A stretch of 64,000 nt of DNA from positions 16,301 to 80,300 of the forward strand of contig JAGORM010000001.1 of the NCBI GenBank assembly GCA_018062815.1. The letters are read 5' to 3'. Under the pieces are notes generated by a model that was given only the letters and a program-made list of their open reading frames with translations, did not search any database and was not told the origin of the DNA. A program made the position numbers and the translations under genes. This document shows, piece by piece, positions 1 to 32,106 of the stretch (positions within the stretch are counted from its first letter, which is position 1; each line of letters begins with the position of its first letter). Source of the DNA: Candidatus Levyibacteriota bacterium. GTDB lineage: Bacteria > Patescibacteriota > Microgenomatia > Levybacterales > GWA1-39-11.

Positions 1-1641
1 AGTTTCCACCTCTGAGGAATTTTGTTTCAGTAGGATTTGCATGGAAGAATTAGATAAAATTGCTTTACCGTAGTCTGAGGATAAAAAGTCTTCTATGTCC
101 TGGGTAAGAGTGGTAACACCCAAATAGTATTTTCTTGCGCGCTTAGCAATTCCCTGTAAAAATGCCGCGGAGTCAGGGTTTTTCATAAGGTACCATGCCT
201 CATCAACTATTAAAATACGTTTTTTAAGTTTAGTCCTAACCCTATTCCAGATAAAATCCAAAATCACCTGCATTGCTACAGGTCGAAGAGACTCCTCCAG
301 TTGTTTTATGGAAAAAACAGTAAGCTGATTTTTGACATCATAGTTAGTTTGTGAATTTAATAATCCGGCAAACCCTCCTTTAATGTATTTTTCCAGTCTA
401 AAAGCTAAATCCTTTGCGTCTGCTTCTTCCATGTTCAGAAGAGTTTTGTATAGATCCTCAAGAATGGGAGGCTCATTTCCAAAAGTTGAAGGGTCAGGAA
501 TTATACCTTTTTGCTTATAGCATAAAACCAGTGCTCGGTCTAAAATTGCCTCCTGGGTTGGGGAAAATTCGCCAAGCATAATCTTAAGAAGTGAGTGAAG
601 GGCTAAAAATTTTATTCCAAGCTGCGCTTCGGTTCTGTCGTCTGAAAGAAGGGCGAACGGATTAATTTTTACTTCAGAGTCCTTTGAGAAGGAGATATAT
701 TCTCCGTCAAGGCCGTGACAGAGGGCTTTATACTCATCCTCAGGGTCTATGATAAGAATTTCTGTGTCAAACATCATTTGGCGCAATACTTCAAGCTTTA
801 CTAAAAACGATTTTCCAGAGCCTGATTTTCCAAAAACAACCGAATTTGCATTTTCAAAGGAGAAGCGGTCCACAATGATAAGTGAGTTATTAAGCGTGTT
901 TACACCATAAAAAATGCCGTTTGGCTGAGAGATTTCGTAGGATGTGAACGGAAACGTTGAGGCAACGGATGTGGTGTCCATATTCCGTGTGATGAACAAT
1001 TTGTCCTCACCTAAAGGAAGTGTTGTTTTAAAACCATCTTCCATTTGAAGCGTTGCTGGTTTTATAACAAGTAAATTTGACGCAAGTAGGGAGGTCAGTT
1101 CATTAGTTTTTTTATCAAGCTCATCAACAGTTTTTGCGGAAAGCGTTACATAAAGCCCGAATTGAAAAAACCGCTCAAGTCCGCGCGCCAACTCCTCACG
1201 TAGAGCAATCGCGTCTTCAAGAGATGCTCTGACCTTGGGGTCAGGTTCTATGCCGTTTTTCATGTCTGATTCAATTGTTGCCTCCATTTCTCCGATTTTG
1301 CGTTTCAAATTGGAGAGAATATCCTTACTTTCGACAGGATATATAAACATAGATACATTCATGGTTTCCTTATAGTCTATGAGTATGGAGAGCCAGTTTG
1401 GGGAAACTTCACGCGGATAATCAATTACAATAAACGTTCTATAGAATGCGTCTCCTACCCTGATGTACTTAAAATCTACTTCAACTGATGAAGGAGCAAG
1501 AAGGTCTATCAGAGACACAGATCCGCTCTTTAATCTTTCAACTCCTCGTGCGACTTGTGGTTGTGTGCTTTCTGGTGTTCCATTAGCCGTTTGTGCAGTT
1601 GTATTTTTTTCTGTTTGTTTTTTCTTTCCAATTCCTAACAT
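1..1641 (-). CDS. virB4: VirB4/TrbE/CagE-family type IV secretion ATPase; C-terminus runs off the window start
   Basis: Manual minus-strand translation from ATG at 1641: MLGIGKKKQTEK... Walker A (FGKSGSGKSF) and Walker B (LIVDEAWYLM). The N-terminal region has the VirB4/TraC N-domain pattern. No stop codon before coordinate 1. Confidence 0.8.
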   Translation of the reverse strand, partial: MLGIGKKKQTEKNTTAQTANGTPESTQPQVARGVERLKSGSVSLIDLLAPSSVEVDFKYIRVGDAFYRTFIVIDYPREVSPNWLSILIDYKETMNVSMFIYPVESKDILSNLKRKIGEMEATIESDMKNGIEPDPKVRASLEDAIALREELARGLERFFQFGLYVTLSAKTVDELDKKTNELTSLLASNLLVIKPATLQMEDGFKTTLPLGEDKLFITRNMDTTSVASTFPFTSYEISQPNGIFYGVNTLNNSLIIVDRFSFENANSVVFGKSGSGKSFLVKLEVLRQMMFDTEILIIDPEDEYKALCHGLDGEYISFSKDSEVKINPFALLSDDRTEAQLGIKFLALHSLLKIMLGEFSPTQEAILDRALVLCYKQKGIIPDPSTFGNEPPILEDLYKTLLNMEEADAKDLAFRLEKYIKGGFAGLLNSQTNYDVKNQLTVFSIKQLEESLRPVAMQVILDFIWNRVRTKLKKRILIVDEAWYLMKNPDSAAFLQGIAKRARKYYLGVTTLTQDIEDFLSSDYGKAILSNSSMQILLKQNSSEVET

Positions 1642-1678
1642 ACTATAAAATAACCCCTTTCATTATGTGTAATAAGCG

Positions 1679-2293
1679 CTACACTATAATATTTTTAACG
1701 TCATTTGTTGAGAAGTCTACGTTCATAGTCGTTTGGTTGAAAAGTTCAAAAAATACCCGTCCTAATTCCTCTGCCTTAATGACTCTGCTTGAAAGACCGA
1801 TTCGTTCAATCTGCGTCATAACATTTGTTCTTTTAGTTGCAATCGCCTCTGTAATCCGCATTTCATGTGTCTTTTTGTTGCCTCCTGATGTTGGCCCTAG
1901 CTCTAATGCGTTAAATGGGATTACCACATATGTTTTTTTATCCAATAGTCCGTCTTCTTTTATAAGCTCTTGAATGAAGTCTTTGTATAGTCTTAAGTGT
2001 TCAGCTACTCGTGCGTTTTGAGTAATTGTAATTTTGTGATCAAGGGAGGCAACATATGATGAAAGGTCAATCCTTTTGGAGACAATTACAATTTGGATCG
2101 CAAAAGAAAGAGAATTTAAAAGAGACATGTATCCATATATGCGCGCGTTTTGTTCGTCTTGCGAGAGTAGAAAAAAATTGACGGATGATACTTCCAGAAT
2201 AGAGCATGCATTTTTTCCTTTCAGCAATACGGTATCATCCCGAATGTCTTCGATCTCAATAAATGATTGCGTTGTAGACTTAATTTTAGCCAT
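1679..2293 (-). CDS. Hypothetical T4SS-associated protein; the 204-aa sequence resembles a VirB4 N-terminal domain
   Basis: ORF track; lies between the VirB3-like gene and virB4. The segment IRDDTVLLKGKNACSILEVSSVNFFLLSQDEQ matches the VirB4/TrbE N-domain pattern. No ATPase motifs. Confidence 0.4.
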   Translation of the reverse strand: MAKIKSTTQSFIEIEDIRDDTVLLKGKNACSILEVSSVNFFLLSQDEQNARIYGYMSLLNSLSFAIQIVIVSKRIDLSSYVASLDHKITITQNARVAEHLRLYKDFIQELIKEDGLLDKKTYVVIPFNALELGPTSGGNKKTHEMRITEAIATKRTNVMTQIERIGLSSRVIKAEELGRVFFELFNQTTMNVDFSTNDVKNIIV

Positions 2294-2302
2294 GGACAGG
2301 TT

Positions 2303-3418
2303 TTATAGAGTATTATGTGCTACTCCAAATAATTCACGTCTTAATTTTTCGCGTTGATCAACGGATATTACCTGAATAGGTTGAGCCACTGATCCGTCAA
2401 GCGTTATTCTTTTGTCTTGAAAGTCCTGTTTTTTTAACGTGTCTTCCATGTGTAGCGTATACATTCCGTTTGGAAGCGGAGTTGCTGCTCTAAAAAAACC
2501 ATTTGCATCAGTTCGGAACGTTCTAAGTGGCACATTTTGAGTATCAAGCACTTCCACAATGATATGAGGTAGCGGTTTTCCTCTTGGGTCAAGTATTTTG
2601 CCTTGTAAAATGTTTGCTATGTCTATGCCCCCCACAGACACTTGGGGAGGTGCTACTTGAGTTGTAGGTGGCGCTTCATCTGCTGCAGTAGTAGGGGTAG
2701 TAGTTTGAGCAGTTTTAACAGCGGGTGCTGTTTGGTTTGTAGTTTCCTGTACTGGAGGAATCGGAGTTTCCGCATGAGGGGTAGATAGTTTCTGTGTTTC
2801 AACTTCTGACACATGCGTAGCGTATGCAGGAGAAGTAGTTATCGCAGAAGCTTTTTTTTCATCTGCAATAACTTTGGTTGTAGCGCCGCCTTGTTGCATA
2901 GAACCATCTTTAAAAAGGTTATTTACGTTTTCTACCTGAGATTTTTCATCAGCATCAGGCTTAAAGTAAGAGCTTGCAAGTTGATTAAAAAGCTTTGCTT
3001 TTTGTACAGCTGCGCTGTCCTCAGAGGTTGAGCTGGTAATGTTAGTGTGAGAAGGAGGAATAAATGTAAAGTATGGCATTTGCGTTCCGTGTTTTTTATA
3101 AATATACTGATTTTCCGCGGGAATTGCCTTAAAAAAGTTGAAAAGCATTTTGTCCATAGGCCTTCCGTCAATAGGTACAAATGCCAGGCAAAGACCAACA
3201 CCCCCTGAGAGAAACATAAATGGAAGCTTTAATAAAAATGGAATTGGAAAGAAATAGAACAAAAGTGCAAAAACCCCGCCACCTAAAAGATATAGAAACT
3301 GCTTTACCGTAACAGATCCTATAAGCCTAAATTTAAATCCTGTAACATCCTGCGGGATTGGGTGATTTTCCATATAGTACAGGGTATAACGTGAAACATA
3401 TGCTTTCAAGATTATCAA
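2303..3418 (-). CDS. VirB3/PrgI-like two-TM membrane protein with a Pro/Thr-rich linker and a C-terminal carboxypeptidase-regulatory-like beta-sandwich domain
   Basis: N-terminal FRLIGSVTVKQFLYLLGGGVFALLFYFFPIP hairpin, typical of PrgI/VirB3 proteins encoded just upstream of virB4. The C-terminus GKILDPRGKPL..TDANGFFRA..LPNGMYTL is CarboxypepD_reg-like. Confidence 0.45.
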   Translation of the reverse strand: MIILKAYVSRYTLYYMENHPIPQDVTGFKFRLIGSVTVKQFLYLLGGGVFALLFYFFPIPFLLKLPFMFLSGGVGLCLAFVPIDGRPMDKMLFNFFKAIPAENQYIYKKHGTQMPYFTFIPPSHTNITSSTSEDSAAVQKAKLFNQLASSYFKPDADEKSQVENVNNLFKDGSMQQGGATTKVIADEKKASAITTSPAYATHVSEVETQKLSTPHAETPIPPVQETTNQTAPAVKTAQTTTPTTAADEAPPTTQVAPPQVSVGGIDIANILQGKILDPRGKPLPHIIVEVLDTQNVPLRTFRTDANGFFRAATPLPNGMYTLHMEDTLKKQDFQDKRITLDGSVAQPIQVISVDQREKLRRELFGVAHNTL

Positions 3419-3621
3419 AATAGGTCAAAAAAAAGATAATCTGTGCGTAGCGTGAAAAGCGTTGTGTTTTCTTGACATGCGCTTATGTTTTGCCGTACCA
3501 TGAATAGTAGAATGTTTGTAGCGTTTCTGTTATTTTGATGTCAAGAAGAGTAGCATAAAGAATCCTATAATATCAGAATATAAATAGGTAAAAGACTCTT
3601 ATGTAGGAATATTTTATAAAC

Positions 3622-3966
3622 ATGGAATTTACACAGGAAAAGAAAAAAAAGGTTGAGAAAATGATTGTTGATTCAATGATAGATGCGGTAGGCGCAGGAT
3701 TTGTCCAGGAAGACGCTCTCCCCAATATTTCTGAGTTTGTATTAAGCAGGATGGATACTATAAAAAATGAAGAAGAATTAGTCGCATTCCTTATTGAGCT
3801 TTCTCAGAAATGGTCATTTTTCTTGCCGATTGAACGCTTCATTGAAGGGGAAGCAAAGGAAGTAGAAGATAGAAAATCAGTAGATAAGGCAGAAAATCTT
3901 ATAAAAGGTGGACAATTAGATCAAGCGCTGCAGGTTTTAAAAGCTGCAGAGAAAGGAGGACTTTAA
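3622..3966 (+). CDS. Hypothetical acidic protein (114 aa)
   Basis: ORF track; contiguous with the downstream gene (5-nt gap). No recognisable motif. Confidence 0.4.
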   Translation: MEFTQEKKKKVEKMIVDSMIDAVGAGFVQEDALPNISEFVLSRMDTIKNEEELVAFLIELSQKWSFFLPIERFIEGEAKEVEDRKSVDKAENLIKGGQLDQALQVLKAAEKGGL

Positions 3967-3970
3967 GTTT

Positions 3971-5917
3971 ATGTCAGCACCAACATCACCAGACATGGGG
4001 AAAATAAAACAAGAGGCTATTGTACGAGCAATAACCGGTAAAATTGAATTGACTGATGCTGAGAAGGGGGAAAAACAGCATGAAATGGCGGCAAAGATTG
4101 CCGAGAAAAGCTTGAGAAAAAAACGCGGAGATGAGGGTAATGATCACGCTTTTATGGAAGGGTTAAGAAATCAAAAAAAAGGAGTACAAGAAATCCCCAC
4201 AGGAGATGAGGTAAAAAAGGTAATTGAAGGTGCACATATTAGTGCTGAGGATAAAAACATTGCAGATCAAACAGAGGAAGTACTGCGGGCAGTTTTCTCA
4301 GGGGATAAGGCATACTTAGAGACTCAGGCAGCAAGAACAAGCGATTTTTTAATTGCTCCAATTCGGGAAATGATGGGAAGGGACCCTGTCTTTAAAGAGA
4401 TAGCAGATGGTATTGACAAGAGCCCTGCTTCTCTAAACCAATGGGTTGATTTTGTCACGGAGCAGTTAGATTCAGGTCGCAGACCAGGAGATAACTTGTT
4501 TATGGATGATCTTCAGGCAAAATACAAAACGTTTATGGAGAAGGACAGAGAAGATTCCGTAAGTACTACGGTGATTCAAAGAAAACTTGAAAGGCAGTCA
4601 GCAAAGGAAAAGGCATTAAACGATCAGTTTGAATCAAAATTAAAAGAGGCTGGTGCGAATAGGGATAGGAAAAATGAATTTGCAAGTACAGAAAAGGGTG
4701 CAGGAAAAGATTTAATAGATTTAACACAGAAAGCTGATGATGAGAAGAATGATAGAGAGCGGATAGAGCGTGAGCTTGGCGCACTAAACTCAGATAGGGC
4801 AAGAGCACAAGAAGACGCTCTTAGCCAGAATAACCTCATAAGAAAAGACGCTGAGGTAAAGTTGCGTGAATTAAGAGATAGTATCTCTAAAAAGGAGATA
4901 GAGCTGACTCCATTTAAACAAACAATTGATAAAAAAAATGCCTTGATTTCTGAAAGAGACGGATTGGATTCTGCATATACAAAAATTTTAGACGATCAAG
5001 ATAGTCTTGAAACTCAAATTGAAGTTGCGGGTAAAGAAAAAACAAAGATAGAGGCGCAGCTTGCAAATGCCGGAGGCGCAAAAGATAAAGAAAACTTTAT
5101 AAAGGAGTTTAAGGCTATTATGGGAGACGCGTTTAGAGACACAATGCTTGCCAGATTTGACGCGGAGCAGGCAGGCGTCAGTGAATCCCTGAAGGAGTTT
5201 ATAGAAGCAGCGCGCGATCCGCACGTTAAGGCAGCATTAGAACAACTTTGGGACAGTCATAATCGTTGGAAGGATTGGGATTCGGCTTGGAAGACCCGGC
5301 TAAAGATTCCTTATGGTCGTAAAGAGGAGCCTAAGATGCAAAAAGATCTTATGAGGGAAGATGTAGATATTTTACTCAAAGAGGGTCCTGAAGGTTTTAT
5401 GAGAAGATTTCTTCATCAAAAGATGGATCCTGATACAAAAAACGCAAGTCATCCTTACGGAATGGTGTACTCAAAAGAAAAGATAGATGAACTGATTTCA
5501 GATAAAGACTTTATGGATGCCGTACAGCCAAAGGCTGCAGGATTATTGGTTCGTCAGGCTGTTAAGGCAGGTGTGCTGTCTGAGCGTCAAATGGCAGAGT
5601 TGAGAGATACAGAATGGGGAATGAGCGCAATTGAAAGCGCACTCATGATGGACAAAACAGCTGTAGAGAGCGGTAGGGCACACCAGGCAATAGACTACAT
5701 AAAGAAACACCCAAAGTTTGCATGGTGGATGCTTTTCACTATCTTGTGGCCGCCGGCAGGGTTATTTGTTGCGGGAGCATATGCAGGTAAGGAAGTTGTC
5801 TCAGGGATGTTTTCAGGCAAAAATAAAGATCACGGAGGTCATGATAAAGCGCCTGTAAATGTTGAGCCGCCATCTTCACCTCAGGCAGTACAATTGCACC
5901 CCGCGCCTGCTCATTAG
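3971..5917 (+). CDS. Large coiled-coil, tail-anchored protein (C-terminal TM WWMLFTILWPPAGLFVAGAYAG)
   Basis: 648-aa ORF rich in K/E/D/R heptad-like segments with a single C-terminal hydrophobic helix. Only short ORFs, inferred spurious, lie on the opposite strand. Confidence 0.55.
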   Translation: MSAPTSPDMGKIKQEAIVRAITGKIELTDAEKGEKQHEMAAKIAEKSLRKKRGDEGNDHAFMEGLRNQKKGVQEIPTGDEVKKVIEGAHISAEDKNIADQTEEVLRAVFSGDKAYLETQAARTSDFLIAPIREMMGRDPVFKEIADGIDKSPASLNQWVDFVTEQLDSGRRPGDNLFMDDLQAKYKTFMEKDREDSVSTTVIQRKLERQSAKEKALNDQFESKLKEAGANRDRKNEFASTEKGAGKDLIDLTQKADDEKNDRERIERELGALNSDRARAQEDALSQNNLIRKDAEVKLRELRDSISKKEIELTPFKQTIDKKNALISERDGLDSAYTKILDDQDSLETQIEVAGKEKTKIEAQLANAGGAKDKENFIKEFKAIMGDAFRDTMLARFDAEQAGVSESLKEFIEAARDPHVKAALEQLWDSHNRWKDWDSAWKTRLKIPYGRKEEPKMQKDLMREDVDILLKEGPEGFMRRFLHQKMDPDTKNASHPYGMVYSKEKIDELISDKDFMDAVQPKAAGLLVRQAVKAGVLSERQMAELRDTEWGMSAIESALMMDKTAVESGRAHQAIDYIKKHPKFAWWMLFTILWPPAGLFVAGAYAGKEVVSGMFSGKNKDHGGHDKAPVNVEPPSSPQAVQLHPAPAH

Positions 5918-5960: not shown

Positions 5961-6308
5961 TTATTGTGTTTTAGGAGGACTCAACAATTGATTTAACCCT
6001 ACTCCCGTGAACTGAGACAAGAGATTTATCATGACAAATGACAGCATGATTATCACTAGCCCAATAATTGCGTAAGTGAGTCTTTTTCTTGCGTTGTCCA
6101 CTTTTTCTTTATCTCCTGAAGATGTTACATATTGGTAGCCTGAGTAAATGATAAGAAATACGGCAACCACGCCGGATAAGATGAGCGCTGCATTAATTAC
6201 ATTTTGTAGTACAACCCACACGCAAGATAAGGTAGCCACCCCTGTTCCGTTTGGGTCGCCTTCAATTTTTTTGACACATGATCCCCAATCTTTTGTAAAT
6301 AAATCCAT
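5961..6308 (-). CDS. VirB2/TrbC-like T4SS pilin (hairpin two-TM pilin)
   Basis: Motif YSGYQYVTSSGDKEKVDNARKRLTYAIIGLVIIMLSFVMIN: pilin-loop signature S-x-GD-x-x-K-x-x-x-A(R/K) between two hydrophobic helices. Confidence 0.65.
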   Translation of the reverse strand: MDLFTKDWGSCVKKIEGDPNGTGVATLSCVWVVLQNVINAALILSGVVAVFLIIYSGYQYVTSSGDKEKVDNARKRLTYAIIGLVIIMLSFVMINLLSQFTGVGLNQLLSPPKTQ

Positions 6309-6369
6309 ATGCTTTTAGCATAAAACAAATATGAGAGATAATTCAAGGGGAAAGGCAAGTAGTGCAGTA

Positions 6370-6834
6370 CTATTGATTTACCGAGGGACTAGGGCCATTT
6401 CGAAGTGAAGGTATTTCAAATCCAGTAGTAAGGTAATTACCTGTAAAGATGTAAAGGACAGCGTTTATAATAACGTAGGCTAGTATAACTATAATAAGTC
6501 CCACAATAGCCGCAACTATAGTAGAGCGTGCAGTATCAATTTTCCCTTTATCTCCTCCTGAAAGAATCCACCTGACGCCGCCATACAAAAGGAAAATAAG
6601 GGACAGGACAATTCCAATAACTATAATAGCGTTTATAATAAAAGCAATCAGTTCATTTGGTGTCACATCAATATTTCCGATTGATTTAGGTGACTTAATT
6701 ATTATAGGTTCAATAGTATCAGCAAAGACTGGAGTTGCTGTAACTGACATAAGAAGCGTACCAAAAGAAACTGACGCGGTATTTATAACTTTTTGCAGAC
6801 TCATATAATTATTAGAACATGTTTTTTTTTGCAT
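6370..6834 (-). CDS. VirB2/TrbC-like T4SS pilin paralog with signal peptide and short N-terminal extension
   Basis: LLYGGVRWILSGGDKGKIDTARSTIVAAIVGLIIVILAYVIIN, the same hairpin-pilin signature. Signal-peptide-like N-terminus. Confidence 0.6.
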   Translation of the reverse strand: MQKKTCSNNYMSLQKVINTASVSFGTLLMSVTATPVFADTIEPIIIKSPKSIGNIDVTPNELIAFIINAIIVIGIVLSLIFLLYGGVRWILSGGDKGKIDTARSTIVAAIVGLIIVILAYVIINAVLYIFTGNYLTTGFEIPSLRNGPSPSVNQ

Positions 6835-6848
6835 GTCAAGAAGCGTTA

Positions 6849-7175
6849 TTATTTTCCTAACTCTTGCAGTACCTGCGCACCCAGAATAAAGCCTATAATT
6901 CTTACAATAGTAAATGACAGAAGGATTATGATAAGCCCTACAATTGAATACGTGATAGTACGCCTAGCGCGGTCAATTTTAGTTTTGTCTCCTTGAGACG
7001 TAATCCACAAAACACCTGCATACAGCATAAAGATGAGAGAGGCAATAATTCCTATTACAACTATCATTCCTAATCCAAAACTAATAATATCAGACGGAGC
7101 ACTTGCTCCTGACGGGATGTTTTCAGGAGTTTGTACCTCTCCATACCCTGGTAGTGTTAAAGATAAGTATTTCAT
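6849..7175 (-). CDS. VirB2/TrbC-like T4SS pilin paralog
   Basis: MLYAGVLWITSQGDKTKIDRARRTITYSIVGLIIILLSFTIV signature. Confidence 0.65.
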   Translation of the reverse strand: MKYLSLTLPGYGEVQTPENIPSGASAPSDIISFGLGMIVVIGIIASLIFMLYAGVLWITSQGDKTKIDRARRTITYSIVGLIIILLSFTIVRIIGFILGAQVLQELGK

Positions 7176-7176
7176 A

Positions 7177-8802
7177 TTATTGAAGGCCAGGTATTCGTAA
7201 AATGTTTACACCAATAAACTCAAGTATTGCAATTGAGAGAATAATAAATATTAATCCTGTGATTGCAGCGGTTATTTGCTCACGTGCTTGTCCCACTTTT
7301 TCTTTATTTCCCGCGGATGTCATAATGGTGTATCCTGCGCGGATAAAGAAGAGAACAGCAGCTACTCCTCCGATAGACAGCACTATGGTAAATATGTCGC
7401 GTACAAAAAATTGAGGCTCAGTGCTGATTTTTATCCCAAGAGCAGTTGGAATTTTTTTACAATACCCAGTTGCTTTATCAATATCAACAGGATCGCAAAG
7501 TGGTCGGGGAGGGAACCATGGAATTGTGGCTCCCAACTCCTTGCCATATGGGTCTTTTATGATTGTACCTATTGAGCCTTCTCCTCCTCCACGGGCTATA
7601 GTAAATGTTATAAAATACAGAGTGAAATCGTTAGGCTCACAGGTGATACCATTTTTGTTTTTCTTTAAATCTCTCCCGTCTTTAATTTTTAATATATATT
7701 TCCCCTCAGTAAGTGTTGCAATAACATTTCCGTCAGAGTCTTTTGATTCAGGGCTTAAAAAAATGGTGGCTTTTCCTGTGCTTGCTTTTGGGTCTGCGCC
7801 TTTTTCAACAAGAAGGCATTTAGGCTCACTTCTATAGTCATTATCCATTCCCTCAATCTGCATCCAGTAGTCATTATATATGTCCTCATTTTTCCCCGAT
7901 TTAATGTTTCTTCCTTTCAGCTCTACTAAAAAATCCCAACCTTTTTTCATGTTGTCGGTATTAAGAAGTTTATTTTTCTCATCTCCCTTAGGGAGTACAA
8001 CTTCAGGGTAAAAATGACTGACATAAAAGTCTGCGTGCGCTTTTACGTCATTCGGATTGACGCTCTTACTATCTTTCCCCTGTGACAGATAAACATGATA
8101 AGTTTTTCCTGCATGGAACCAATCTCCATCTACCAGGTTAGTGCTTTCTGTGCAGTCTTCTTTTAGAGTTTTTTCTCCGTCCCCGCACAGCTTTGGTAGT
8201 ATGATAGTCCCGTTTGAAACTGTTGCTTCATTCCAATCGTCATCGCTGCAGTCCTCCGGCTTACTTTTAAGGCAATAAAAATATTTGGAATTTTTTGTAG
8301 GATTAGAAATATTTTTAAAATACACTGAAACAAAAGGAACGCTTTCGTCTATATATGGCTGGTTATTTTTCTTATCTTTTTCAAGTCCACGTGTAGCACC
8401 TAACCCTTTGCAAATGTAATAAGATTCAGAAGTTATACAGTCTTCAAGTGTGGGGTTATTGATTTCATCCAAAAATCTGTCTTCGTTAGTGTTCCCTTGT
8501 TCATCAGTGCAGGAGGTATTTGTAAAAAGATTTGCATCATCAATAGTTGCCGGAAATTTGCCGCCTAAAGTTCCCAGGTATGTGCAAATCGTGTTGCACG
8601 CTGTAGGGTTATCACCGGTAGCATATACGGTTGAGAGATCTTTCATTGAAACCAGAGTTCCCTTTACGGTTTTTTGTACGTTTTTTTGACCGGTGCAGAC
8701 ATCACTATAGTCACGTCCGGTAAATACAACACCTGCCGCGAATGTAGGGGGAACGTAGTACAGACAGATAAGAAGGAAGAAAAAAAGGATAAGTTTCTTC
8801 AT
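7177..8802 (-). CDS. Secreted Cys-rich ~450-aa extracellular domain fused to a C-terminal VirB2/TrbC-like pilin module; candidate tip adhesin or minor pilin
   Basis: Signal peptide MKKLILFFFLLICLYYVPPTFAAG and many Cys residues. C-terminus IRAGYTIMTSAGNKEKVGQAREQITAAITGLIFIILSIAIL carries the pilin signature. Confidence 0.6.
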   Translation of the reverse strand: MKKLILFFFLLICLYYVPPTFAAGVVFTGRDYSDVCTGQKNVQKTVKGTLVSMKDLSTVYATGDNPTACNTICTYLGTLGGKFPATIDDANLFTNTSCTDEQGNTNEDRFLDEINNPTLEDCITSESYYICKGLGATRGLEKDKKNNQPYIDESVPFVSVYFKNISNPTKNSKYFYCLKSKPEDCSDDDWNEATVSNGTIILPKLCGDGEKTLKEDCTESTNLVDGDWFHAGKTYHVYLSQGKDSKSVNPNDVKAHADFYVSHFYPEVVLPKGDEKNKLLNTDNMKKGWDFLVELKGRNIKSGKNEDIYNDYWMQIEGMDNDYRSEPKCLLVEKGADPKASTGKATIFLSPESKDSDGNVIATLTEGKYILKIKDGRDLKKNKNGITCEPNDFTLYFITFTIARGGGEGSIGTIIKDPYGKELGATIPWFPPRPLCDPVDIDKATGYCKKIPTALGIKISTEPQFFVRDIFTIVLSIGGVAAVLFFIRAGYTIMTSAGNKEKVGQAREQITAAITGLIFIILSIAILEFIGVNILRIPGLQ

Positions 8803-8843: not shown

Positions 8844-10175
8844 TTATGGAACAAAGCGGTATCCTCGGCCCTTTATAGTTATAAGGTGTGTCGGGTTATT
8901 CGGGTCTTCTTCAATCTTTCGTCTGACTCTGTATATAATTTGGTCTAGTGCTTGGTCAGTTACACCTTCCCGTGTTTTTTCATCTGACCATACGGATCCA
9001 ATTATTTCCTCTTTTGTGCATACCTTATCAGTGTTTTGAATTAAAAATCTCAGCAGCTTAAATTCTGATGGAGAGAGAACATCAGTTAGTGATTCGTTTC
9101 CGTCTTTTATCTCTTGAGTGTTTGCGTCAAGCGTTATTTTTTCAGTTGCAGGATTTGGGAAGTGAGACAAATTTTTTAAAAACAAAGGTATTTGAATCTC
9201 CCCATTTTGGATTAGATAAGAGCGTTGTAGAAAGGAATCCGCGGAAGCTCCAGCAGGGGATTTAAGAAGTATTTTTTGCTCTATCGGTATTAGTGAGTTC
9301 CAGATTTCAATCAATGCTCCTTGAATTGCTGCTTTTGACAGCAAAAAAGCTGATAAGTCTTCATATTTTTCTTCCTCCCCAAGTACTGTTTCAAGTGCAA
9401 TTCTGGACAATTTTCCGTGTCCTGCGGTGAGTTTTAGGATTTCTTTTTTTGTATTTTCTGACGCTTTTCTTCCGCTGGTTTTTTCAAGATAGGAAAATCT
9501 AAAGTCATTAGTTTCAGGATCTGAAATAGGTAGAAATACCTGGTTTCCTACAACAAATTCATAAAAGTCAGAAAAAATAGAGGGTTCCAGTAGATCTTCC
9601 AGGGGGCGGGTAGTTGAAAAAACCGCTGAAAATCTGTATTTTGCCCTGTTTCTTAATACCCGTAAATTAGTAAAGAAATGTTCATTTATGCAAGGAAAGT
9701 ATGTGTCAAATCTGTCAAAAAGTAAGACTATAGTTAGCTCCCGTTCTATGGATAAGTAGTCAATTGCGCGTTTTAATGCCTGGAAAAGGATTAATTCATC
9801 CTGAAAAGAAACCGCTTCCTTGAGAATTGTGTTTATAGCATCTTGATCTTTGTCCATTTTCCGCTCTGACAGGGAATAGGAAAGGGAGATTAGGATAAAT
9901 TTCACCAATTCATAAAAACTTCTGCCCTTTATTTCTGACAAGTCCATGTACACAAAGTGGTACCACTTATAGTTTTCCCCTAAGTGTAAGGTTCTGAGAG
10001 CGTTGTTATACGCTAAAAGCCTTAGAGTGTTTGACCGTCCTACGCCGGGTAGGCCTAATACCTGTGCTGAGTTCCCTTTTTTAATATATGAAAGAATTTT
10101 ATCTATCTCCGGTTTCCTTGCGGACGGAGGGTATAAAGACTCAAAATGCACAGGTTCAGAGGTTGGAGTAGCCAT
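8844..10175 (-). CDS. Transcriptional regulator: N-terminal AAA/STAND-type NTPase fused to a C-terminal OmpR/PhoB-type winged helix
   Basis: Walker A GLPGVGRSNT and Walker B-like IVLLFDRFD. C-terminus SPSEFKLLRFLIQNTDKVCTKEEIIGSVWSD...ITIKGRGYRFVP is the trans_reg_C signature. Confidence 0.6.
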   Translation of the reverse strand: MATPTSEPVHFESLYPPSARKPEIDKILSYIKKGNSAQVLGLPGVGRSNTLRLLAYNNALRTLHLGENYKWYHFVYMDLSEIKGRSFYELVKFILISLSYSLSERKMDKDQDAINTILKEAVSFQDELILFQALKRAIDYLSIERELTIVLLFDRFDTYFPCINEHFFTNLRVLRNRAKYRFSAVFSTTRPLEDLLEPSIFSDFYEFVVGNQVFLPISDPETNDFRFSYLEKTSGRKASENTKKEILKLTAGHGKLSRIALETVLGEEEKYEDLSAFLLSKAAIQGALIEIWNSLIPIEQKILLKSPAGASADSFLQRSYLIQNGEIQIPLFLKNLSHFPNPATEKITLDANTQEIKDGNESLTDVLSPSEFKLLRFLIQNTDKVCTKEEIIGSVWSDEKTREGVTDQALDQIIYRVRRKIEEDPNNPTHLITIKGRGYRFVP

Positions 10176-28590: not shown

Positions 28591-28635
28591 AACAATTTTT
28601 ATCTATTCTTACAACCAGGGGGAAGAAATTGTGGG

Positions 28636-28707
28636 TGGGCGCGGCAGGATTTGAACCTGCGACCAATTGTGTATAAGACAACCGCTCTACCACTGAGCTA
28701 CACGCCC
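28636..28707 (-). tRNA. tRNA with anticodon UAU (tRNA-Ile reading AUA)
   Basis: Reverse complement GGGCGTG-TA-GCTC-AGTGGT-AGAGC-G-GTTGT-CTTATAC-ACAAT-TGGTC-GCAGG-TTCAAAT-CCTGC-CGCGCCC-A forms a cloverleaf. The 7-nt anticodon loop is CU-UAU-AC. No encoded CCA. Confidence 0.75.
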
Positions 28708-28762
28708 AAAAAGGAAACTGTGGTAAATTATAGCACGAGAAAGGAAAATATTCGATTCGTAA

Positions 28763-31195
28763 TTATATAAGGCCGCCGTTGCCGCCACCTAGCTTATCTC
28801 CTCCGGGGTTACCAAATGGATCTTCACCTCCTGGACCTAAATCACCAAATACTTCAAATAATTTAGAACGTTTTGCTATTTCAGCCTCAACTAATTCTTT
28901 TGGCTTTCCGTATTTTAGCCTGGATAGCTCCTTAACTAATTCAGCGACCCTAGGGTTTGCCATTTTTCGTTCAGCTTCAATATCTCGAGTAAGATCCATT
29001 GAGAATGGTGGAGCGGGCTCATTTTTGATAACAGTTTTAACATATGCGTGACGTGCCTCAATATTTATCAGATCAGCTTCGGTAAAGGTTGGCTGAAATT
29101 CATGTTGCAGATAATTTGCATCAGATACGCCTACTCGGAATGATACAATAGTTCCGACGTTTCCAAAAATAGCATTTTTAATTTCCTCCTCAATTTGCCC
29201 TATGAATTGGTTTGCAACTATTAGGTTTAATCTATATTTTCTTGCCTCAGAGAGTATTTGCGCAAAATCAGGCGTTGCAAAATTTTGAAACTCATCTACA
29301 TAAAGGAAAAAATCGCGCCTTTGTTCCTGCGGAATATCTTGTCTACTCATAGCAGCAACGAGTATTTTGGGAACCAGTATAAGTCCAAGAAAGTTTGAGT
29401 TTTCTTCACCGATTTTCCCTTTGGCAAGCGAGATAAGAAGAATTTTACCCTCATCCATTGAGCGTCTAAAATTAAAAGATGAGTCAGATTGACCGATCAT
29501 ATTTCTCATCATGGTGTTTGTAACAAATCTTCCAAATTTTGAAGTAATATAATCTAATACTTCAGATTTATGAAAGTCAGAAGTTTGTGCTATCTGATCA
29601 GTCCAGTAGCGTCTGATAATAGGATCTTTTACTTTAGGGAGAAGTTCCTGGACAAAATTTTGATCAGTTAAGACGCGCATAACCTCCACAAATGTATTCC
29701 CCGGCTCGGACATAACGGTAAGCATAGCATTTCTTACAGCGTGCTCAAATCTAGGGCCTATGATACCTGTTTGATGTGGATCAAAGAGCTTATACATGAG
29801 CCCTATAATGGATGTTACCACCAAATGTTTTTGTTCTTCTGTTTGAGCCTCAAGCATATTTAGTCCCATTGGCCGTTCTGTGTCTGATGGATCAAAAAGT
29901 ATTACGTCTTCTGCGCGTTCAGGCGGAATTAGTGGCAAGATTAAATCAATTGTGTCATGAGGGTCAATAAAGCAGACTCCGTGCCCTGCCTTAATATCTT
30001 GCAGTATCATATCTTTTAGAAATTCAGATTTTCCTACACCTGTTTTCCCGACTATATACATATGTCTTCGTCTGTCGTCTTCCCCTATATATATGGGTTT
30101 TGAATTTCCCCTGTATTCACTTTTTCCAATATACAGTCCGGTTGTAGGAATACTTGCAGGTGCAGGGGCACTGCGGGCAGCTAGCCAGTGAATATGTGGG
30201 CTTTCAACAGACTTATTCGGAAAGTGGAAGATAGTCGCAAGTTCATCAACGGAAAGGACTGAACCTTTTTTGAGAAGAGGAAGTGTTCTGTAAATAAAAT
30301 CCACCATAAACATTCCCTTGAAATACTTCATTTTTTCCTTGGAGAAAGAATTGTATGAGGAGAATTGAGTAAATGAGGTAACCATATTTTCCAAATGCGC
30401 ATTTGCTGCTTCTTTTGAAGATGATGAGACAACAAGTCTTATATAAGTGTTGAAAGCAGGTTTTGACAGTTTTCCCTCTATTGCCTCCAATTCCTTTTGG
30501 TCAACTGAATATTTTGCTGTTTCAGGATTTGCCTCTCTTTTTTTAATGCCTGTTATATGTGCACGCCCCTGTTTTTTCCATTTCCCGTCAGTAGGAGTAA
30601 TAAGTATTTGGATAGCAGCAGATTCGCCTTCCTGCATTTTCCCAAGAGTTGAAACCATTGTTGACATTGGGTCAACAGGAAGTTGCTGAAAAGATTTTAT
30701 TGGAATATAAGGGGAAGATTTTAAAACAAGTCCTGCAAATGCTACCTTACTTTCATCTGAGAAAATATCATATTCTTCAGCAGGTGAAATACTCGCGTCG
30801 GGATATGCACCGTGGATTTGTTTTTCAACCATATCTTCCAACTTCTTAGGTATTGATACGTAAAACCTGATATCTCCTGTTTTAGCAACTATTTCAAATG
30901 CTATATAATCAGGTACTTTTGAAAATCCCAGTAATCCCTTTGCTCCTTTTATTCCAGAAAACGCCGAAAACATTTGTTCTGCAGCATCTATCTTTATTTC
31001 ATTCTCTCGGGGTAGTTGTACTTCAAGCAAGACCATATCAAGAGCCTTTTTCTGTCTTTCGCGGTTTTTCTTCCAAAAAAGATATGCGACATATATTCCT
31101 AAGACTGCAAATACAATCAAGCTTGTGAGGAGGATTCCTATAGCAAGAACAAAAAGAAGCGTTATGATGTTGTTTACAATGTCTACCCCTGTCAT
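28763..31195 (-). CDS. Membrane-anchored FtsK/HerA/TrwB-superfamily ATPase; type IV coupling protein (VirD4/TraG)-like
   Basis: N-terminal TM. Walker A IVGKTGVGKSEF, Walker B FFLYVDEFQNF, then SEARKYRLNLIVANQFIGQI (the arginine-finger/Q-rich motif of T4CP/HerA-type ATPases). Gly-rich C-terminal tail. Confidence 0.5.
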   Translation of the reverse strand: MTGVDIVNNIITLLFVLAIGILLTSLIVFAVLGIYVAYLFWKKNRERQKKALDMVLLEVQLPRENEIKIDAAEQMFSAFSGIKGAKGLLGFSKVPDYIAFEIVAKTGDIRFYVSIPKKLEDMVEKQIHGAYPDASISPAEEYDIFSDESKVAFAGLVLKSSPYIPIKSFQQLPVDPMSTMVSTLGKMQEGESAAIQILITPTDGKWKKQGRAHITGIKKREANPETAKYSVDQKELEAIEGKLSKPAFNTYIRLVVSSSSKEAANAHLENMVTSFTQFSSYNSFSKEKMKYFKGMFMVDFIYRTLPLLKKGSVLSVDELATIFHFPNKSVESPHIHWLAARSAPAPASIPTTGLYIGKSEYRGNSKPIYIGEDDRRRHMYIVGKTGVGKSEFLKDMILQDIKAGHGVCFIDPHDTIDLILPLIPPERAEDVILFDPSDTERPMGLNMLEAQTEEQKHLVVTSIIGLMYKLFDPHQTGIIGPRFEHAVRNAMLTVMSEPGNTFVEVMRVLTDQNFVQELLPKVKDPIIRRYWTDQIAQTSDFHKSEVLDYITSKFGRFVTNTMMRNMIGQSDSSFNFRRSMDEGKILLISLAKGKIGEENSNFLGLILVPKILVAAMSRQDIPQEQRRDFFLYVDEFQNFATPDFAQILSEARKYRLNLIVANQFIGQIEEEIKNAIFGNVGTIVSFRVGVSDANYLQHEFQPTFTEADLINIEARHAYVKTVIKNEPAPPFSMDLTRDIEAERKMANPRVAELVKELSRLKYGKPKELVEAEIAKRSKLFEVFGDLGPGGEDPFGNPGGDKLGGGNGGLI

Positions 31196-31729: not shown

Positions 31730-31821
31730 GTTTTCATGATATCACCAATAGCTTCTTTTGGCAATTTCACAAACCCAACAAAAGAGTAACAGGATGAAAG
31801 GGGAAAAAAGGCTAGTATGTG

Positions 31822-31913
31822 CGGAGGAGACAGGATTTGAACCTGCGCGAGCCTGTTTAAGGGGCTCAGGGGGTTAGCAACCCCCCGCAATGGACCAACT
31901 ATGCGACTCCTCC
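31822..31913 (-). tRNA. tRNA-Ser (anticodon GCU), class II with long variable arm and G73
   Basis: Reverse complement GGAGGAG-TC-GCA-...-TGC-G-GGGGG-TTGCTAA-CCCCC-(variable arm GAGCC...GGCTC)-GCAGG-TTCAAAT-CCTGT-CTCCTCC-G. Confidence 0.75.
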
Positions 31914-31979: not shown

Positions 31980-32064
31980 GGAGAGGTCGCATAGTGGCCT
32001 AGTGCAGCGGTTTACTAAACCGCCGTATCGCAAGATACCGAGAGTTCGAATCTCTCCCTCTCCG
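31980..32064 (+). tRNA. Class II Ser-type tRNA (G73, long variable arm) with the unusual anticodon ACU
   Basis: GGAGAGG-TC-GCA-TAGTGGCCTAG-TGC-A-GCGGT-TTACTAA-ACCGC-C-GTATC-GCAA-GATAC-C-GAGAG-TTCGAAT-CTCTC-CCTCTCC-G. The anticodon stem has 5 Watson-Crick pairs; loop positions 34-36 are A-C-U. Followed by a T-run. Confidence 0.6.
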
Positions 32065-32106
32065 CATTTTTTTTAATTTCCTCGTTTTTTGGTATAATCC
32101 CCTTTC

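Follow-up and report, generated by a model that had tools for sequence, protein, structure and literature searches.

The window analysed here is a stretch of 64,000 nucleotides (nt) from a Levybacteria genome (Candidate Phyla Radiation, CPR/Patescibacteria), and its low-numbered end carries the start of a chromosomal type IV secretion system (T4SS) operon. A 204-residue protein encoded there is, with a probability of about 0.8, the already described TrsD, the detached first domain (subdomain) of the VirB4 ATPase. The preceding gene codes for a PrgI/VirB3-like protein with a C-terminal beta-sandwich, which is a real, conserved and lineage-wide VirB3 variant, roughly three to four times as large as usual. 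Overall, the T4SS core is ordinary for Patescibacteria, apart from one VirB3 variant specific to the lineage. The PrgI-like gene, the gene for the 204-aa protein and virB4 are all on the minus strand and are transcribed in that order, as seen from the list of open reading frames (ORFs) and from the sequence itself:

3374..3418, minus strand: in-frame extension of 15 codons that starts with TTG and belongs to the mechanical ORF only; the N-termini of homologues correspond to the ATG
2303..3373, minus strand: PrgI/VirB3-like protein, 356 aa (Pfam, alignment of 50 homologues, AlphaFold2 (AF2), Foldseek, hydropathy and charge counts)
1679..2293, minus strand: TrsD/TraD-family protein, 204 aa, PF26593 'TraC-like' (NCBIfam, precomputed PF26593, blastp, fold matches)
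1642..1678, minus strand: trsD-virB4 spacer of 37 nt, with the purine-rich GAAAGGGG upstream of the virB4 ATG (sequence read directly)
1..1641, minus strand: VirB4-like ATPase, first 547 of 697 aa, running off the window (NCBIfam, Pfam; length from identical public contigs)

A preliminary description of this DNA had reported these ORFs, and they were found at the positions given there, on the minus strand. It had also called the VirB3-like gene the one immediately upstream of virB4, which is loosely worded. The PrgI-like gene adjoins virB4 on the same strand with only trsD between them; it precedes the gene for the 204-aa protein, and it is the latter that directly precedes virB4. The mechanical upstream ORF (3418..2303) begins with TTG and codes for 371 aa. 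However, all 50 aligned homologues have MENHPIPQDV as their N-terminus, and the start codon was therefore assigned to the ATG at 3373 (356 aa). The extension is probably not translated. Nine bases separate the stop codon of the PrgI-like gene from the 204-aa ORF (2293..1679), which includes IRDDTVLLKGKNACSILEVSSVNFFLLSQDEQ. The gene virB4 starts with the ATG at 1641, and its full length of 697 aa was obtained from public contigs with an identical 204-aa protein. On these contigs, virB4 is followed by the gene for an 814-aa protein, by three genes for small proteins, and by dnaN and dnaA. The 204-aa protein is 100% identical to the public protein KBC00_00700 (Candidatus Levybacteria). In a scan of positions 1500-3700, promoter scores were not above shuffled expectation, and there was no minus-strand terminator-like site between the genes.

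The proposed homology of the 204-aa protein to the N-terminal part of VirB4 holds up for sequence as well as for fold. The protein matches the NCBIfam model VirB4_plasma at positions 100-232 of 894 (E 1.2e-10). It also matches the TrsD/TraD model NF041427 over nearly its full length (positions 12-200 of 201, E 2.2e-6), being a distant member with 27.6 bits versus a curated cut-off of 200. When plasmids were searched with tblastn, the best match was to the N-terminal 175 residues of a VirB4 of 754 aa from Carboxydocella pCCELLA01; in a pairwise blastp comparison, residues 1-184 align with residues 4-174 of this protein (E 4.6e-18). PF26593 ('TraC-like') is the precomputed public annotation of the identical protein and of the great majority of the relatives listed. 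The local Pfam library matched no family, neither for TrsD nor for the Firmicute TrsD-like proteins, and a PDB sequence search with the TrsD profile returned nothing relevant (best E 1, RasGRP2). According to hydropathy, TrsD from the window is soluble and devoid of transmembrane (TM) segments. When its AF2 model was compared to PDB with Foldseek, the best 14 matches were all to R388 TrwK/VirB4 (E 4e-4 to 7e-3, TMq 0.42-0.51), at a sequence identity of 8-14%. This model has a mean predicted local distance difference test score (pLDDT) of 72, and for this reason the structural match is taken as additional support for the sequence argument, not as its basis.

The 204-aa protein is not the Pfam domain CagE_TrbE_VirB (PF03135), to which the preliminary description had compared it. 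A Pfam search gave no match of PF03135 to it at E <= 1, and the domain is retained in the 697-aa VirB4, where a weak match links residues 156-209 to model positions 140-196. TrsD is the segment N-terminal to the CagE_TrbE_VirB region of VirB4. It weighs against this assignment that the placement of TrsD at the extreme N-terminus rests on collinearity with fused proteins from Firmicutes and Levybacteria and not on R388.

The VirB4 from the window has a K/T/Q-rich N-terminal tail, followed by the CagE_TrbE_VirB-equivalent domain and a P-loop ATPase; Pfam matches are to P-loop_TraG, AAA_10 and DUF87. Residues 37-545 match positions 180-698 of 752 in the NCBIfam model conju_CD1110 (E 8e-117). In full-length VirB4 models, the alignment with this protein does not begin before about position 180, which suggests a split. 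TrsD and VirB4 map collinearly and without overlap onto single-chain VirB4s. On the Carboxydocella protein, for which the TrsD alignment is given above, VirB4 residues 43-547 align with residues 183-693 (E 3e-68, pairwise BLAST). On VirB4_plasma, where TrsD covers positions 100-232, VirB4 covers 292-838. On a fused Levybacteria protein (locus L053), TrsD maps to residues 1-196 and VirB4 to residues 196-701. By these alignments, TrsD would be the first subdomain (about 175 residues) of fused VirB4s, and the 697-aa VirB4 would start exactly where TrsD ends.

The preliminary description had left the choice between a split and a duplicated VirB4 N-domain. The split is borne out by the collinear mapping. 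An internal duplication was rejected because VirB4 lacks the TrsD region, and a comparison of the TrsD family with the N-domain retained in Levybacteria VirB4 returned nothing (hhalign, probability 0.3%). A TrsD-family profile matches the N-terminus of the fused VirB4 and the split N-terminal pieces from Firmicutes, but none of the short VirB4s. From these comparisons, the arrangement appears to have originated by fission and not by duplication. A duplicated strand at the junction was also considered (TrsD ...NDVKNIIV resembling VirB4 ...SLIDLLAP), but the profile boundaries in the fused proteins show no convincing overlap.

Gene order was analysed in 80 species-representative loci, of which 78 are not cut by a contig end. 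ORFs for the PrgI-like protein, TrsD and VirB4 are present in all 78 uncut loci. In 75 of these, each neighbouring pair is on the same strand, in the order PrgI-like/TrsD/VirB4, and close together; the spacing between TrsD and VirB4 extends from short overlaps (1 or 4 nt in many cases) to gaps of about 130 nt. In three loci (L041, L045 and L053, complete chromosome CP066685.1), TrsD and VirB4 form a single protein of 767-789 aa. In a neighbour-joining tree computed from the ATPase part, the three fused loci are an exclusive clade that is nested among split forms, and the fused clade thus reads as a secondary re-fusion. Alternatively, the 204-aa protein might be an independent paralog that has a task of its own, e.g., as chaperone or adaptor, instead of forming a structural part of VirB4. 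This is improbable given that TrsD maps collinearly and without overlap onto fused VirB4s, that its partner VirB4 lacks exactly the TrsD segment, that the three fused proteins are nested among split ones, and that the genes abut or are at most about 130 nt apart in 75/78 loci, often with overlaps of 1 or 4 nt.

The preliminary description had considered the region as non-standard. This is contradicted by the gene order VirB3-like/TrsD/VirB4 on Firmicute plasmids (L002-L004), and by the published finding that no other T4SS component is as common in Patescibacteria as TrsD (Quinonero-Coronel et al. 2025, PMC12102498). The same gene order occurs in Terribacillus (PrgI, a 300-aa 'TraC family' protein, a 697-aa ATPase), in Clostridium botulinum pCBH (prgI, 257 aa, 620 aa) and on a Peribacillus plasmid (a 132-aa protein, TrsD, a 657-aa DUF87 protein). 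In Gram-positive conjugation systems (pGO1, pSK41, pIP501), TrsD/TraD is likewise a protein of about 200 aa which is encoded between a VirB3-like gene and virB4 and which is homologous to the VirB4 N-terminus. However, that class is plasmid-borne, while the locus described here is on the chromosome, near dnaA/dnaN. Some Firmicute versions (Terribacillus, C. botulinum) have an N-terminal TM helix, in contrast to TrsD from the window. For Patescibacteria, 2,272 TrsD homologs were reported, mostly adjoining virB4; TrsD was described as a remote homolog of the VirB4 N-terminus and as essential in S. epibionticum (PMC12102498). The homology of TrsD and VirB4 is credited to Guglielmini et al. 2014 (PMC4027160), but TrsD is not named in the main text of that paper. 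The window resembles the Patescibacteria T4SS described in PMC12102498 and the essential locus of S. epibionticum ML1 (PMC10633639) in having a monoderm MPF-FATA-type VirB4, TrsD and PrgI/VirB3, an array of VirB2-like pilins, a location near the replication origin, and a gene resembling that for the type IV coupling protein (T4CP) far from virB4. The exact collinear split between TrsD and VirB4, the re-fused forms, and the C-terminal domain of VirB3 are not part of that earlier account, and we found no mention of a C-terminal domain on VirB3 in PMC12102498. The best structural match of the TrsD model is to R388 TrwM(VirB3)-TrwK(VirB4) (PDB 7o41-7o43, 8rtb, 8rtd); there, however, TrwK is a single chain of 823 aa, and TrwM carries no tethered domain. 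VirB3-VirB4 fusions (from Campylobacter plasmids and others, cited in PMC12102498) likewise point to plastic gene boundaries and have the VirB3 C-terminus in the cytoplasm, but these are fusions while the case described here is a fission. In Patescibacteria, such fusions were not found (PMC12102498).

The second protein of interest is the PrgI/VirB3-like protein. Its N-terminal part matches PF12666 (PrgI) above the cut-off (residues 20-98 versus model positions 1-81 of 91, E 1.5e-7, 32.3 bits, cut-off 27). A conserved N-terminal tail (residues 1-25) is followed by two hydrophobic segments (26-48 and 52-69) with a loop of three residues between them, which hydropathy predicts to be a TM hairpin. 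AF2 places the helices of the hairpin at 23-41 and 46-64, with block-mean pLDDT values of 94, 95 and 93 over residues 31-60. The two-helix VirB3/PrgI N-terminus that had been proposed is supported by Pfam, hydropathy and AF2. Beyond the hairpin, there are amphipathic helices (73-92) and conserved helices (120-155). The most frequent residues in 101-255 are T, A, P and S, followed by V and Q, and AF2 confidence is low across this region; composition and low confidence support the proposed linker, which is disordered and T/A/P/S-rich and spans about 156-255. The C-terminal part is a seven-stranded beta-sandwich of the transthyretin/CarboxypepD_reg type (strands 257-336, AF2 block-mean pLDDT 91-97), followed by a conserved terminal helix DQREKLRRELFG at 340-349. 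The sandwich had been likened to CarboxypepD_reg, and the AF2 strands and Foldseek agree with this. PF13620 itself (residues 271-325, E 1.4e-7, 32.2 bits) remains 0.1 bit below its cut-off of 32.3, and it is a precomputed annotation for most homologs among those listed. Foldseek matches of the sandwich are to the transthyretin-like domain of carboxypeptidase D (3mn8, E 6e-5), to the transthyretin-like domain 5aq0 (TMt 0.71) and to CnaB2 (TMt 0.69), and also to Gram-positive pilins and an S-layer protein.

With 356 aa, the protein exceeds the size of small VirB3s (about 90-130 aa; Firmicute PrgI 93-132 aa). All 78 uncut loci have the combination of PrgI and sandwich, which also recurs in more than 100 clusters formed at 50% identity. 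In the 78 loci, the longest PrgI-like ORF has about 300-505 aa with a median of 396, which is an upper bound as it is counted from the first ATG, GTG or TTG. Four outlier relatives (P0271, P0281, P0283 and P0260) have 567-1141 aa, with the same PrgI N-terminal part and C-terminal sandwich and with linkers of several hundred residues. One of these long-linker relatives has a long ER/K-rich stretch, which may form a single alpha-helix. Across the family, the linker varies from 46 to more than 800 residues, and both ends are conserved throughout.

Errors of assembly or annotation (a frameshift in virB4, or an ORF merged by mistake) are a highly improbable explanation of the split or of the long PrgI. 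The sequence is from a metagenome-assembled genome (MAG), and public calls of the PrgI-like gene are inconsistent. However, the split is found, with its own start codon, in 75/78 species-level genomes; the K-rich tail at the N-terminus of the split VirB4 is absent from the fused forms; and the full-length PrgI architecture occurs in 133 species-representative genomes and on four independent contigs carrying the identical TrsD protein. The full-length homologs in the 133 genomes also agree with the earlier statement that no frameshift is evident. In public gene calls (L005-L007), the PrgI-like protein starts at an internal Met and has 304 aa, so that TM1 and the PrgI domain are lost and only the CarboxypepD_reg annotation is left. 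Such miscalled starts may contribute to the low association of VirB3 with virB4 that has been reported for Microgenomatia (22.6%). When the literature was searched for a VirB3 combined with a carboxypeptidase regulatory-like domain, no papers were found. The extended VirB3 is the one undescribed feature of the locus.

In the preliminary description, this VirB3-like protein was said to carry an extracellular domain, which the predicted topology contradicts. We consider that the C-terminal domain is probably cytoplasmic and tethered. This location is rated above one at the surface because of the presence of only two TM helices, the distribution of lysine and arginine (K/R), the published VirB3 topology and the existence of VirB3-VirB4 fusions. 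Among 50 homologs, none has a third hydrophobic segment, and in this family K/R counts are 3 on the N-terminal tail and 5.5 after TM2, but 1 in the three-residue loop. The termini of VirB3 are described as cytoplasmic (PMC12857230), and the published VirB3-VirB4 fusions (PMC12102498) require a cytoplasmic VirB3 C-terminus. The invariant N-terminal tail and the helices after TM2 argue for contact with a cytoplasmic ATPase.

Several points weigh against a cytoplasmic location. P/T/Q-rich linkers of variable length and CarboxypepD_reg/CnaB-like sandwiches are typical of surface proteins, and the nearest non-PrgI relatives of the sandwich are giant multi-repeat proteins. Thus, the hairpin might have both termini outside, or the tail might be exported, with the linker spanning the wall and the sandwich exposed at the surface for contact with pilus, wall or host. 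Linker composition and the extreme variation in length (members with 567-1141 aa but both ends conserved) fit this alternative, as do the fold relatives, which are mostly extracellular (carboxypeptidase D, CnaB2, Gram-positive pilins, S-layer protein), and the giant repeat proteins as closest sequence relatives outside PrgI. Long P/Q-rich linkers are, however, also known from cytoplasmic regions, e.g., in FtsK. Given this and the topology arguments above, we regard an extracellular sandwich as rather unlikely.

Taken together, the three genes probably code for the cytoplasmic-membrane base of the Patescibacteria T4SS, with the VirB4 ATPase made as two polypeptides. TrsD would dock non-covalently onto the N-domain of VirB4 and thus rebuild a complete N-terminal domain. 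The hairpin of PrgI/VirB3 and its cytoplasmic helices would keep the rebuilt domain at the membrane, in the way that TrwK is wrapped by TrwM in R388, which is the source of the 1:1 anchoring of VirB3 and VirB4 assumed here. In Levybacteria, VirB3 is extended beyond its hairpin by the linker of very variable length, the conserved beta-sandwich and the terminal helix. By predicted topology, this tail module would be in the cytoplasm, tethered under the ATPase, and it most likely binds a partner, which may be the ATPase, another copy of the module, a substrate or an adaptor. Our confidence in any specific role of the tail is low, and a partner-binding module beneath the ATPase is a guess. It is tempting to speculate that VirB3 is a long-reach tether and its module a new T4SS part (e.g., a cytoplasmic gate or a substrate receptor) which replaces the missing VirB11 or a locally encoded coupling protein or, if the topology prediction is wrong, that this is a wall-spanning VirB3 which reaches the surface; we consider this doubtful. 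In this reading, the tether is at the base of an otherwise minimal and probably essential T4SS.

Other genes of note and three tRNAs are encoded in the window:

3622-5917, plus strand: two divergently transcribed genes, for proteins of 114 aa and 648 aa, between the T4SS core and the pilin array
5961-8802, minus strand: four T4SS_pilin (PF18895) genes (Pfam), a VirB2-like pilin array as described for Patescibacteria
8844-10175, minus strand: 443-aa protein with a C-terminal OmpR-type winged helix (Trans_reg_C, E 8e-20), adjoining the pilin array
28632-28708: tRNA-Ile(UAU)
28763-31195, minus strand: 810-aa protein with TraG-D_C (PF12696; 26 bits versus a gathering score of 22), candidate T4CP
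31821-31913, minus strand: normal tRNA-Ser(GCU), back to back with the ACU tRNA
31980-32065, plus strand: class-II tRNA with a long variable arm and a 7-nt anticodon loop TTACTAA, giving ACU (Ser); an unusual A34 tRNA

The last gene of the pilin array codes for a protein of 541 aa, in which a large Cys-rich N-terminal region is fused to the pilin domain. The 443-aa protein has a P-loop-like GLPGVGRS motif in its N-terminal region and could be a regulator of the locus. The 114-aa protein and the 648-aa protein, which is rich in charged residues, have no Pfam family above the curated cut-off; among the 80 related loci, they occur in 32 and 7, respectively. These two neighbours and the 814-aa protein are poorly conserved across loci (phmmer). 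The candidate T4CP is encoded about 25 kb from virB4, which fits the published remark that t4cp genes of Patescibacteria are often far from virB4. The rest of the window is ordinary chromosome, with genes for ribonucleotide reductase, transfer-messenger RNA (tmRNA), UvrD, MurJ, PurF, PurD and LepA.

With respect to TrsD, the idea put forward in the preliminary description is right but already published. The TrsD result alone matters little because the family and its abundance in Patescibacteria have been reported. What is added here is that TrsD and the short VirB4 would make up one full VirB4, that the split is at a domain boundary, and that a naturally re-fused clade exists, which could be used as a control. 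The exact complementarity gives TrsD, so far without a function, a structural role that can be tested. VirB3 is the least understood core subunit of T4SSs, and the extended VirB3 is the more useful lead: its conserved extra domain on the anchor could point to gating or loading of the machine, and this in a T4SS that is essential for epibiotic growth in the one member of the Patescibacteria where this was tested.

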